Positions 6,265 to 55,262 of a stretch of 64,000 nt of DNA are shown piece by piece (within the stretch, counting starts at the first letter, position 1; every line of letters starts with the position of its first letter). The DNA lies in contig JBAQTB010000001.1 in NCBI GenBank assembly GCA_049296775.1, positions 357,284 through 421,283 of the forward strand, in the 5' to 3' direction. A model generated the notes under the pieces. It was not told the origin of the DNA. It searched no databases and saw only the letters and a program-made list of their open reading frames with translations. The stretch comes from Patescibacteria group bacterium. GTDB taxonomy: Bacteria > Patescibacteriota > Patescibacteriia > UBA9934. Position numbers and translations under genes: made by a program.

Positions 6265-6957
6265 ATGCAGAAGAATATTCCAGAGTTAGCTAAGTTGATC
6301 AAAGTTCCGTACAAAGCTGGTGGACATTTAGAGCAGGCGGTGGTGCATCGTTCCTATTTGAATGAGCATCCAGATTTTCCGTTGGCGCATAATGAACGTT
6401 TGGAGTTTTTGGGTGATGCGGTTCTTGAGTTGGTGGTGACTGAGTATTTGTATAACAATTTTCCTAATCCAGAAGGTGAATTAACTACTTGGCGTTCGGC
6501 TTTGGTGAACGGGGACAGTTTGTCTGATTTGGCACATGGCCTGGGAGTTGAACCATATTTGTATTTATCTAGAGGTGAAGAAAAAGATGTCAATTCAAAG
6601 GCTAGACGGTATATTTTAGCCAATGCCATGGAGGCGATCATTGGCGCGATTTACTTGGACTTTGGTTGGGATGAAGCTAAGGTGTTTATTACGGATAAAG
6701 TTTTGTCACAGCTGAAGGGTATTCTTGAGTCACGTTCATACGCTGACCCTAAGAGTTTATTTCAAGAAGCTGCTCAGTCAAAAATGGCCACCACTCCAAG
6801 TTATAAAGTCTTAGATGAGAATGGACCGGATCATAATAAGATCTTCAAGATCGGTGTGTATCTAGGCAAGGAGCTAGTGGCGGAGGGGGAGGGATCTAGT
6901 AAGCAAGAGGCGCAGGTGGATGCGGCTAAAAATGCCCTAGAGGTTAAAGGTTGGTAG
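6265..6957 (+). CDS. rnc: ribonuclease III
   Basis: RNase III signature ERLEFLGDAVLELVV, a second catalytic region AMEAIIGAIYLD, and a C-terminal dsRBD. Stop is TAG at 6955..6957. Confidence 0.9.
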   Translation: MQKNIPELAKLIKVPYKAGGHLEQAVVHRSYLNEHPDFPLAHNERLEFLGDAVLELVVTEYLYNNFPNPEGELTTWRSALVNGDSLSDLAHGLGVEPYLYLSRGEEKDVNSKARRYILANAMEAIIGAIYLDFGWDEAKVFITDKVLSQLKGILESRSYADPKSLFQEAAQSKMATTPSYKVLDENGPDHNKIFKIGVYLGKELVAEGEGSSKQEAQVDAAKNALEVKGW

Positions 6958-7567: not shown

Positions 7568-7644
7568 TGGTGCGAGCTGAGGGACTTGAACCCCCGACCC
7601 CTTGGTTCGAAGCCAAGTGCTCTATCCAGCTGAGCTAAGCCCGC
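7568..7644 (-). tRNA. tRNA-Arg (anticodon TCG)
   Basis: Reverse strand folds as a cloverleaf: acceptor GCGGGCT/AGCTCGC, D-arm GCTC-AGCTGGATA-GAGC, anticodon loop CTTCGAA, T-loop TTCAAGT, encoded CCA. Confidence 0.85.
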
Positions 7645-7721
7645 AGAAAACCTATCCAAGTTCGCCGGCTACAGGTGTATCCGACGCACGTAATAGGTTT
7701 TTTACTCATTAAATTATGCTT

Positions 7722-7765
7722 AGTCTACGCTAAATCTTGACCCAAGTCAAAGATTGAGGCATACT
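7722..7765. promoter_or_regulatory. back-to-back divergent sigma70-like promoters sharing a palindromic -35 region (TTGACccaaGTCAA)
   Basis: Plus strand: TTGACC (7737..7742), 17-nt spacer, CATACT (7760..7765), reading toward the candidate ncRNA and tRNA-Lys. Minus strand: TTGACT (7750..7745), 17-nt spacer, TAGACT (7727..7722), reading toward tRNA-Arg. Confidence 0.45.
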
Positions 7766-7789
7766 GTTGGCGTTGGCGTTTGGTGGCGA

Positions 7790-7906
7790 GGGGCAGTAAA
7801 ATGCTTCAGCTGCGAGGCGCGGGGGATTGAGACTGAGGCGTATGTGGCTATACGGTGAAGTCGAGATGGGGCCCCGCAACAAGGCAGATGGACATTTTAC
7901 TGCCCC
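7790..7906 (+). ncRNA. candidate ~117-nt structured small RNA; identity unresolved (SRP/4.5S-like RNA is one possibility)
   Basis: Perfect 14-bp terminal helix GGGGCAGTAAAATG (7790..7803) / CATTTTACTGCCCC (7893..7906) enclosing ~90 nt with internal hairpins (CGUAU-GUGGCU-AUACG; GCGGGG...CCCCGC). Lies 15-25 nt downstream of a promoter and 8 nt upstream of tRNA-Lys. No protein-coding signal. Shares the decamer AAGGCAGATG with E. coli 4.5S RNA, but the helix-8 GGAA/AGCAGCC motif was not found. Strand not proven. Confidence 0.3.
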
Positions 7907-7914
7907 GAGATTAC

Positions 7915-7989
7915 GCATCGGTAGCTCAGCGGTAGAGCAGTTGACTCTTAATCAATTGGTCGTGGGTTCGAATCCCGCCCGGTGCACCA
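7915..7989 (+). tRNA. tRNA-Lys (anticodon CTT)
   Basis: Cloverleaf: acceptor GCATCGG/CCGGTGC, D-arm GCTC-AGCGGTA-GAGC, anticodon loop CTCTTAA, T-arm GTGGG-TTCGAAT-CCCGC, encoded CCA. Confidence 0.85.
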
Positions 7990-7990
7990 A

Positions 7991-8021
7991 AATCACCTAT
8001 CCTATGGATGGGTGATTTTTG
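7991..8021 (+). terminator. rho-independent terminator after tRNA-Lys
   Basis: Hairpin aatcacctat...atgggtgat followed by TTTTT. Confidence 0.6.
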
Positions 8022-54548: not shown

Positions 54549-54662
54549 TATTTTCGTGCTCTTGCTAGAGCTTGCTAATATTCGCGTTTTTTGCTATTCT
54601 GATCACCGTGAAGTGCGAGAAAACATATTAAGTTTGGTCAGATCCTAGAGGCGAGCGAGTAA

Positions 54663-54738
54663 GGCTGGGTAGCTCAGTTGGTAGAGCGCAGGACTCATAA
54701 GCCTGTTGTCGCGGGTTCGATCCCCGCCCCAGCCACCA
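54663..54738 (+). tRNA. tRNA-Met (anticodon CAT; elongator, or possibly Ile-lysidine type)
   Basis: Cloverleaf: acceptor GGCTGGG/CCCAGCC fully paired, anticodon loop CTCATAA, T-arm GCGGG-TTCGATC-CCCGC, encoded CCA. Confidence 0.85.
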
Positions 54739-54998
54739 TAAAAACACTTTATTTGGTCGATTTTGGCCTCACGGAGCCTCTATTTTTCTTCACCGTAGGG
54801 TTGCCTACGCCTCAGAAAAATTTTCTCCGTTCAACCAAACTCGCCACAAATAAAGTGTTTTTTTGATTGTGAAAATCTTAGCTTGTGAGGTACCCGGAAG
54901 ATTATCGGCATTTTCATTATGCTTTTAAAGCTTGACCGGAAGTCGAAAAACGTGTATTCTTTGGCCAGGAAATGAAAACCTATTAAGTTTTTAAACGC

Positions 54999-55176: not shown

Positions 55177-55262
55177 GCCATGGTGGCGGAATGGTATACG
55201 CGACGGACTCAAAATCCGTTTCTCGCAAGGGATTGAGGGTTCGAGTCCCTCCCATGGTACCA
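55177..55262 (+). tRNA. tRNA-Leu (anticodon CAA), long variable arm
   Basis: Acceptor GCCATGG/CCATGGT, anticodon loop CTCAAAA, 15-nt variable arm, T-arm GAGGG-TTCGAGT-CCCTC, encoded CCA. Confidence 0.85.

Follow-up and report, generated by a model that had tools for sequence, protein, structure and literature searches.

The 64-kb window analysed here (the whole 64,000-nt stretch of contig JBAQTB010000001.1 of a Patescibacteria bacterium) carries a 117-nt rod-like hairpin between two divergent tRNA genes (7790..7906, + strand). We consider that this hairpin is probably a copy of a multi-copy, non-autonomous, strand-specific interspersed repeat family in a clade of Patescibacteria (Candidate Phyla Radiation, CPR; Uhrbacteria-like). 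A repeat family of the REPIN/ERIC/Correia kind fits the data better than a gene, because the copies are many and divergent, orthologous sites show insertion-deletion polymorphism, copies decay through deletions, and unrelated loci have copies that are almost identical. In our literature searches, we came across no such element described from Patescibacteria/CPR, and the hairpin family is apparently undescribed. An earlier note on this DNA had regarded the hairpin as a possible divergent signal recognition particle (SRP) RNA or a different small RNA (sRNA), and had named the termini of a small multi-copy MITE (miniature inverted-repeat transposable element) as the alternative. In essence, the multi-copy part of that alternative is what we found, with many copies per genome. 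The family does not consist of classical MITEs, since its apical core is conserved and its termini vary between subfamilies.

The hairpin and its family

The window copy belongs to the subfamily that we call type B, and it lies in sense orientation relative to tRNA-Lys, as judged from its fold and its match to a covariance model (CM). Its closing helix (P1) is perfect over 14 bp, just as the earlier note had described it. The 5′ arm (7790..7803, +) is GGGGCAGTAAAATG and pairs with 7893-7906, and an inverted-repeat search showed that the 3′ arm (7893..7906, +) is the exact reverse complement of GGGGCAGTAAAATG. The loop between the two arms is 89 nt in the window sequence. When folded, the 117-nt stretch forms a single hairpin, long and irregular, with −58.9 kcal/mol (z = −6.69), which was equalled by none of the shuffled sequences (0/200), and the opposite strand of the same stretch gives −49.6 kcal/mol (z = −6.24). 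About 0.13 perfect inverted repeats of at least 14 bp with a loop of at most 150 nt would be expected in a random 64-kb window of the same composition. The window has four such loci; only two of them are long-looped, and both are members of the hairpin family. In addition, the covariance model R1 matched 7790-7906 with 59.9 bits (E ~1e-10). The conserved apical module, which was recognized in alignments, is GACU-GAGG-CGUAUG-(UGGC loop)-UAUACG-GUGA-AGUC-GAG (7831..7865, +), that is, a 4-bp helix followed by a tandem G·A loop with a G-U pair and then by a 6-bp helix with a variable loop. The statement that the hairpin has no coding potential is supported, and the hairpin is a real, strand-specific structured element.

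The family was searched in two ways. The core pattern GAGGCGTA-N8-10-TACGKTGARKYCGA matched 25 loci in contigs representing one genome per species; about 19 of these were in nine Patescibacteria-type metagenome-assembled genomes (MAGs), with up to 7 copies in one MAG, and the rest were in unrelated phyla. The same pattern matched 41 loci in metagenomes. A scan of a viral contig collection gave no match, and a phage origin was rejected for this reason. The covariance model R1, which was built from 14 copies, found 36 copies in the genome set and 45 in the metagenome set, with up to 13 copies within the sampled loci of one MAG. After removal of duplicates, the working set contained 61 non-redundant copies from Patescibacteria MAGs and metagenomes.

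These 61 copies are 106-164 nt long (about 120 nt on average) and contain no open reading frame (ORF). The basal helix of the rods is 14-22 bp, and above it there are helices of 2-4 bp divided by purine-rich loops, mostly 5′-GA/5′-GA tandem mismatches. The apical module of the family can be written as GGNC-GAGG-CGUAnn-loop-nnUACG-GUGA-GNCC, in which the loop is variable. The elements GAGGCGTA, TACG, TGA, and CGA are invariant in the alignment, although the pattern scan itself required them in the 24 seed copies. A CM-based alignment was adopted because MAFFT with RNAalifold on all copies misaligned the middle helices. This alignment holds 35 copies, 11 of which had come in independently of the pattern. 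Each of the four CGUA/UACG pairs is kept in 31-33 of the 33 scored rows, and 28 of 34 rows keep the apical G-U pair. Standard pairs fill 95.4% of the cells, double-sided compensatory changes occur in 37 of 43 pairs, and covariation scores 0.635, compared with 0.18 in shuffles and no more than 0.114 when partners are slid; these figures lean towards the structure because the alignment was fitted to the model. Furthermore, several G-U pairs are conserved across the family. At the base of the rod, the termini of type A (GAAAACCTATTAAGTTTG...) are conserved inside the subfamily, and the termini of types B and C are unrelated.

The sense strand folded better than the opposite strand in all of the 61 copies, by 11-16 kcal/mol on average per context class. 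For the 39 copies in tRNA leaders, the means were −57.6 kcal/mol for the sense strand vs −41.7 kcal/mol for the opposite strand. Every copy thus folds better on one strand, and therefore the structure belongs to one strand, as RNA or single-stranded DNA.

The same apical motif was also found in hairpins of an Acidobacteriota chromosome and a Nitrospiraceae MAG. The Acidobacteriota hairpin (L028, 1986-2116, −) is 131 nt long with −98 kcal/mol, and the Nitrospiraceae hairpin lies at about 6360-6445 (−) of locus L027; neither has a tRNA nearby. The motif of these two GC-rich hairpins reads GGNC-GAGG-CGUAC...GUACG-UUGA-GNCC-GAG. A Pfam search of the ORFs flanking the Acidobacteriota copy gave no match. 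The occurrence of the motif in these phyla hints at a conserved protein partner.

Position relative to tRNA genes

Most copies (52 of 61) adjoin a tRNA, always via the 3′ end, and there was no copy (0/61) with only its 5′ end facing a tRNA. In 39 of the 61 copies, the 3′ end lies 1-14 nt (mostly 3-6 nt) before the 5′ end of a same-strand tRNA, and in 13 it lies no more than ~6 nt from the CCA end of a tRNA on the opposite strand. The spacer between copy and tRNA often ends in TAC. Promoter-like sites are found 9-51 nt upstream of the leader copies (~100 nt in one case). Because these promoter distances are variable, the fixed point is the tRNA and not the promoter. Two other ideas were rejected. 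Replication direction does not set the orientation, as both orientations occur within the window, where the GC skew is uniform (4 kb sampled). Nor does the element contain an outward promoter, as its 3′ arm has no acceptable −35/−10 and the promoter upstream of the window copy is conserved in element-free relatives.

In the tRNA-tRNA spacers of L021, L046, and L050, two elements stand head to head, 16-25 nt apart. The spacer copies that adjoin the CCA of the upstream tRNA have no room for a promoter and are transcribed as antisense, and their sense structure is as good as that of the leader copies. Thus, the structure appears to serve the element and not the local transcript, because these promoterless antisense copies keep the sense-strand structure.

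The remaining 9 of the 61 copies are in rRNA, ribosomal-protein, and intergenic contexts, a few of them at contig ends or in rearranged DNA, and one is an antisense intergenic copy. A sense copy in L035 (3290-3412, −) ends 12 nt before the 5′ end of 23S rRNA, which was confirmed by Rfam. A copy in L065 (10030-10154, +) is probably another pre-23S copy, judged only by the resemblance of its downstream sequence to the 23S start of L035. Two further sense copies (L020, 4103-4224, −; L023, 340-457, −) lie in the rplJ-rplL leader and between rpsL and rpsG.

These positions could also mean that the hairpin is a functional cis-acting module of the leaders of stable-RNA and ribosomal operons, which recruits a factor via the GA-rich apical motif. 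The factor could be RNase III, another processing enzyme, or an antitermination or chaperone protein; the module would aid maturation or protect the precursor, and the spread as a repeat would be secondary. Such a module would account for the sense copies in 39 tRNA leaders, whose distance to the cleavage site is short and fixed, for those before 23S rRNA (L035 and probably L065) and in the rplJ and rpsL-rpsG leaders, and for the copies or remnants in the leaders of four of the five window tRNAs. The conserved apical motif and G-U pairs with strong covariation, and the sharing of the motif with other phyla, are in agreement with it. However, in close relatives the tRNA-Lys or tRNA-Arg leader has no element, or the apical module has been deleted (L060; window 7646-7702). 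Since orthologous leaders can be empty or lack this module, the element is dispensable at each site. In addition, the 13 copies after tRNAs put the weaker, UC-mismatched strand into the tRNA transcript, the subfamily found at a given tRNA is not the same from genome to genome, and unrelated tRNAs have copies that are almost identical. We regard the cis-acting module as rather unlikely.

The constant polarity would also be expected from a family of trans-acting sRNA genes, for which the adjoining tRNA (or the cloverleaf of a tRNA antisense) is an RNase P-dependent 3′-end signal. This is close to the proposal of the earlier note, and we think it quite unlikely. On both strands, the distance from the 3′ end to the cloverleaf that it invariably faces is nearly constant, which fits 3′-end formation by RNase P; the sense strand is always the better folder, and there is a promoter-like site upstream of the opposite-strand copy of the window (54740-54862). 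However, the head-to-head spacer copies of L021, L046, and L050 would need transcription through the antisense of another tRNA. Moreover, a conserved gene is not expected to have many divergent, decaying copies per genome, and no Rfam family was matched.

Evidence of movement and decay

In clustering, the similarity of copies does not track tRNA identity. For example, identity reaches 99% between the copies at tRNA-Gly(ccc)/tRNA-Thr(cgt) of one contig and those at tRNA-Tyr/tRNA-Thr(ggt) of another. The identity is 94% between copies at tRNA-Glu and tRNA-Ile, and likewise between copies at tRNA-Arg and tRNA-Gly, and two copies in one MAG are 95% identical. Meanwhile, different subfamilies occur at the same tRNA in different genomes. 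Vertical inheritance alone was rejected because of the 94-99% identical copies at unrelated tRNAs. The copies seem to have moved recently between non-homologous tRNA loci, and they decay by deletion.

The inter-tRNA spacer shared at 99% identity consists of GTA, an antisense copy, 25 nt, a sense copy, and GGCTT. Identity sets in directly behind CCA and breaks off at +1 of the tRNA that follows, and the tRNAs themselves differ. Homologous recombination via tRNA sequence was rejected as the source of the identical spacers, because the left junction shares only CCA. Other pairs of paralogues likewise cease to be homologous at the base of the hairpin and where the tRNA begins.

A single-stranded intermediate, which could be RNA or single-stranded DNA cut by a HUH/Y1-type enzyme, is suggested by a structure that is specific to one strand together with the polarity towards the ends of cloverleaves. 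That the family spreads via an RNA intermediate with ends set by tRNA processing is a speculative reading, which we hold to be unlikely; it is based on the copy homology that stops exactly at mature tRNA ends (after CCA; at +1). The 3′ tail of the element is joined to the tRNA 5′ end or, as complement, to the tRNA CCA end. It is possible that these junctions are those expected from end-to-end template switching of a reverse transcriptase, or from tRNA-primed cDNA on leader or spacer RNA released by RNase P, and such cDNA would then have recombined into tRNA genes. If this is true, the element would be a bacterial "retro-spacer" parasitising tRNA maturation. Less far-reaching would be the assumption of a new system for single-strand DNA transposition with cloverleaf ends as its recognition sites.

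Orthologous loci of the tRNA-Arg/tRNA-Lys region were retrieved via EngB and a small membrane protein. Among them, the two tRNAs and the block of divergent promoters are kept, and the leader content varies. In L081, the tRNA-Lys leader has a full orthologue of the window hairpin with compensated basal changes (CAGU/ACUG to CUAG/AUAG; CUGC/GCAG to CUAC/GUAG) and a different middle stem. The L060 leader has the window element with its apical third deleted. The P1 sequence differs with compensation in both orthologues (GGGGCUAGAAAAUG in L081 and GGGGCGAUAAAAUG in L060). L007 has the 5′ half of the window element, likewise with compensatory changes, followed by a complete element of another subtype beside tRNA-Lys. 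In L008 (and L085-87), there is no element in the tRNA-Lys leader, only a 14-nt stretch from the −10 box to tRNA-Lys, and the tRNA-Arg leader has a 122-nt element. Both leaders are empty in L005/L004. In L082 (GCA_943356555.1), there is no element and the tRNA pair is inverted.

Two details of these loci may be added. A boxA-like GCTCTTTAAACAA lies at 3575-3592 of L007, where it separates the truncated copy of type B from that of type A, and this may be a coincidence. At 915-1138 of L082, the tRNA-Arg/promoter/tRNA-Lys unit stands as a whole in reverse orientation with respect to rnc and the membrane-protein gene; there is no engB between these two genes, and neither leader has a hairpin.

In the relatives, metagenome contigs often end in or beside elements or the adjoining tRNA (L004, L006, L012, L013, L015, L025, L034, L036, L062, and L067). 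Repeats are expected to have such an effect, and this suggests that they fragment assemblies of these genomes.

Several findings weigh against a mobile repeat family. First, there were no clear target-site duplications (TSDs) across the copies compared. GTAC or TTAC stands on both sides in some copies (L017, L024, and L040) and in others on none, and GTAC can extend the stem. Second, no transposase or partner gene linked to the family, and no parent insertion sequence (IS), was found in the 584 kb of sequence examined, where transposases were searched by tblastn with an IS608 TnpA sequence as the query. One Y1 transposase gene is present in the 584 kb (L060, 4922-5413, +; Pfam Y1_Tnp 94.6 bits). 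It is of the ordinary IS200 type (NCBIfam IS200 model 104 bits; RAYT model 27 bits, with a cut-off of 80), and it is not flanked by hairpin repeats. Third, the conserved apical core and the termini that vary with compensation are the reverse of a classical MITE and resemble a protein-binding RNA, and the apical motif in the Acidobacteriota and Nitrospiraceae hairpins could mean a conserved cellular partner. Fourth, the covariation was scored in a model-fitted alignment. Finally, because of the copies before 23S rRNA and in the rplJ and rpsL-rpsG leaders, the element may have a role in the expression of stable-RNA or ribosomal operons.

The Y1 gene of L060 lies directly after the tRNA-Arg terminator, at a locus orthologous to the window, and it has its own upstream hairpin, GATCGTAGCAC...GTGCTACGATC.

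SRP RNA and other identities

The proposal of a divergent bacterial SRP (4.5S) RNA retains almost no probability. The hairpin does resemble bacterial small SRP RNA (RF00169, ~115 nt) in its size, its paired ends, and its single irregular rod, and the decamer AAGGCAGAUG is a 10-nt match to what we take to be the E. coli 4.5S RNA sequence. However, this decamer, which the earlier note had found reminiscent of 4.5S RNA, lies in a stretch that is not conserved among related copies (AAGGCAGATG at 7881-7890). At gathering score, Rfam 15 found five tRNAs only and no SRP RNA in the 64-kb window. At E ≤ 10, there was no match to Bacteria_small_SRP or any other SRP model in 7640-8010, and the only match of any kind that overlaps the hairpin was one of 12.9 bits to YrlA, which mostly covers the tRNA. 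In E-value mode, the type A, B, and C copies gave nothing above noise (matches to miRNA precursors were far below the cut-off), and at gathering score, 20 related loci gave only tRNAs. The apical loop varies freely: it is UGGC in the window and UAAC, UAAAU, AUAG, UGAAAA, and others in relatives, and the conserved loops are the tandem G·A loops. There is no GNAR tetraloop and there are no helix-8 loops; the earlier note had itself pointed out that the diagnostic helix-8 motif is not evident. Furthermore, an SRP RNA is not expected to have three or more copies in the window and many per genome, or to be absent at the same locus in the close relatives L005, L008, and L082.

Some other identities were rejected. 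For 6S RNA, Y RNA, and ribozymes, Rfam in both modes gave only tRNA and noise. Hammerhead and k-turn readings of the apical loop fail because, by inspection, CUGA is not conserved (CCGA, ACGA, and AUGA occur), no 3-nt bulge with GA after it is present, and the tandem G·A loop is symmetric.

A role of the hairpin as transcription terminator or attenuator in the region between the two divergent tRNA genes is very unlikely, and so is a chance origin of the palindrome. Type A and C copies do start with an A-run and end with a U-run, like bidirectional terminators. However, no U-tract follows the window stem (CUGCCCC-GAGAUUAC), and the window copy lies between the only promoter and the tRNA that needs expression. 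A terminator scan of the locus found only the site after tRNA-Lys and none at the hairpin. Chance is excluded by z = −6.7 and by the homologous copies elsewhere.

Comparison with known repeats

Patescibacteria have very small, tightly packed genomes, which are usually thought to be poor in repetitive DNA. The hairpin family fills a large share of the tRNA flanks in Patescibacteria. It has the dispersed copies (61), the length below ~300 bp, and the lack of coding capacity of classical MITEs.

REPINs are hairpins of ~100 nt with compensatory stem changes, in which G-T pairing suggests one functional strand, and REPs are recognised as single-stranded hairpins with a short GTAG tag next to the stem (PMC3733652, PMC3337134). 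Patescibacteria are not among the phyla listed for GTAG repeats (PMC3733652). The present family resembles the REP/REPIN-RAYT system in that its members are extragenic, multi-copy, non-autonomous hairpins whose structure is kept on one strand, with compensatory changes and G-T pairs. In addition, many copies have CTAC, GTAC, or TTAC at the 3′ end, which are GTAG, GTAC, or GTAA on the other strand and thus similar to the REP tag. CCA|GTAGAAAAC was seen at 7 distinct tRNA flanks and CTAC|tRNA in L008 and L053; elsewhere, GTAC, TTAC, ATAC, CAT, and others were found. However, TAC at −3 to −1 is also frequent at tRNAs without an element. No RAYT was found in the 584 kb, and the family conserves an apical module and not two terminal REPs. 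To our knowledge, no REPINs with a strictly end-on orientation towards the ends of tRNAs have been reported.

ERIC (IRU) and Neisseria Correia elements are also imperfect palindromes of 100-150 bp in transcribed intergenic DNA, which form long RNA hairpins, influence RNase processing or are subject to it, and differ in presence between strains. They make TA target duplications. A signature of this kind, with terminal inverted repeats and TSDs, was not found in the copies compared. In contrast to our family, they have conserved terminal inverted repeats, insert into mRNAs in both orientations, and have no fixed relation to tRNA ends. Transcripts that contain Correia elements are cut by RNase III (PMC10969869).

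Rickettsia palindromic elements (RPEs) and CGTC-tagged repeats are likewise hairpin repeats spread in a reduced genome (PMC3733652). However, RPEs have no sequence similarity to the hairpin family. They are 100-150 bp long, can sit in or near RNA genes, and are frequently found in frame within protein genes. We know of no tRNA-end polarity in RPEs.

Palindromes of Neurospora mitochondria, cited in PMC4478555, are conserved palindromic repeats that, as in our family, adjoin the tRNA and rRNA genes of a compact genome. The differences are that they belong to an organelle and are short and GC-rich, not a 120-nt GA-loop rod, and they are not known to be related to our family in sequence. Both a function as processing signals and a nature as mobile DNA have reportedly been considered for these palindromes.

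The family is set apart from all of these systems by the GA-loop rod, the apical conservation, and the strict 3′-end-to-tRNA polarity. It is unusual for bacterial repeats that the 3′-end-to-tRNA rule holds on either strand and that whole spacers are copied with boundaries at tRNA ends. Polarity and spacer copying offer a handle on a new targeting mechanism, or on a processing role of the GA-loop rod in pre-tRNA and pre-rRNA leaders. For annotation, it should be noted that the copies break metagenome assemblies at tRNA loci, create spurious ORFs, and could be mistaken for sRNA or SRP genes.

The tRNA-Lys leader and its proposed processing

The position of the hairpin between divergent tRNA genes, which had been claimed before, was confirmed by ARAGORN and Rfam. 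tRNA-Arg(TCG) is at 7568-7644 (−), and tRNA-Lys(CTT), with encoded CCA and 72.7 bits in Rfam, is at 7915..7989 (+). As also reported earlier, tRNA-Lys begins 8 nt 3′ of the hairpin; the 8-nt spacer GAGATTAC (7907..7914, +), taken from the sequence and the tRNA call, reaches from the hairpin to the RNase P cleavage site of tRNA-Lys. The proposed promoter TTGACC-17-CATACT was found by consensus scan as a sigma-70-type promoter of the tRNA-Lys unit (7737..7765, +). It ends 24 nt 5′ of the hairpin, and it is conserved in orthologous loci. The single-stranded part of the 5′ leader between promoter and hairpin (7766..7789, +) is partly conserved in the element-bearing orthologues L081 and L007.

With a conserved promoter on one side and tRNA-Lys on the other, the hairpin is almost certainly co-transcribed with the tRNA and split from it by RNase P. 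The earlier suggestion of co-transcription and RNase P release can be kept to this extent, as an argument from position. The window copy would be transcribed from the conserved promoter within a pre-tRNA leader of ~140 nt, to judge by its place in the unit, and the leader RNA would fold into the rod. Cleavage by RNase P 8 nt downstream, as position and established tRNA processing suggest, would remove it. By analogy with Correia elements (PMC10969869), the perfect 14-bp basal helix may additionally be a substrate of RNase III. As an element transcribed in a leader and cut off by RNase P, the window copy would be a passenger at a harmless site and not an SRP RNA or a dedicated sRNA gene.

The promoter of tRNA-Arg, TTGACT-17-TAGACT (7750 to 7722, −), was found by the same scan. 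A palindromic TTGACCCAAGTCAA (window 7737-7750) is common to the two divergent promoters. Because of this shared palindrome, the −35 boxes of the tRNA-Arg and tRNA-Lys promoters overlap on opposite strands. The TTGACCCAAGTCAA block is kept in all orthologous loci seen, and orthologous loci share the promoter block CTTGACCCAAGTCAAAG...GGCATACT whether they have the hairpin or not. A terminator scan placed an intrinsic-terminator-like hairpin with a T-run at the end of the tRNA-Lys unit (7989..8019, +).

Two 62-aa ORFs on opposite strands (7730-7918, −; 7827-8015, +), which had been described as overlapping tRNA-Lys, are both present. They are mechanical ORFs that overlap the tRNA, and they are examples of the spurious ORFs mentioned above. 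The neighbouring genes are gyrA, rpmF, nusB, rnc, engB, the two tRNAs, a gene for a 68-aa membrane protein, proS, hup, and rny. Homologues of this EngB carry the name Patescibacteria and in some cases Uhrbacteria, and the contig is part of a metagenome assembly.

Other family members in the window

The covariance model gave three matches in the window, and two further remnants were found by eye and alignment. Four of the five window tRNAs carry a copy or remnant, and only tRNA-Leu (55177-55262) is without a trace. In the leader of tRNA-Arg(TCG), there is an internally deleted type A copy (7646..7702, −; CM match 29.8 bits). It retains both termini (AAAACCTATTA...AACTTGGATAGGTTTTC), ends 1 nt before tRNA-Arg, and is identical to the type A 3′ terminus at 17 of 17 positions; its full-length orthologue is in L008/L007.

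The third CM match is a full-length type C copy of 123 nt (54740..54862, −; 47.1 bits, E ~1e-7). There is 1 nt between its 3′ end and the CCA end of the opposite-strand tRNA-Met (54663-54738, +), and it folds with −57.1 kcal/mol on the sense strand vs −48.8 kcal/mol on the opposite strand. The two remnants, found without the model, are a truncated type A 5′ arm (54619..54662, +) joined directly to this tRNA-Met and identical at 43 of 47 positions to the L017 copy, and a 17-nt remnant of the type A 5′ terminus, GAAAACCTATTAAGTTT (54973..54989, +; 17/17), in the leader of a second tRNA-Met.

When the type C copy is read on the strand of tRNA-Met, a long hairpin is followed by seven T, and this copy may double as the terminator of tRNA-Met. 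The promoter-like site upstream of it is TTTAAA-17-GATAAT (54929 to 54901, −).

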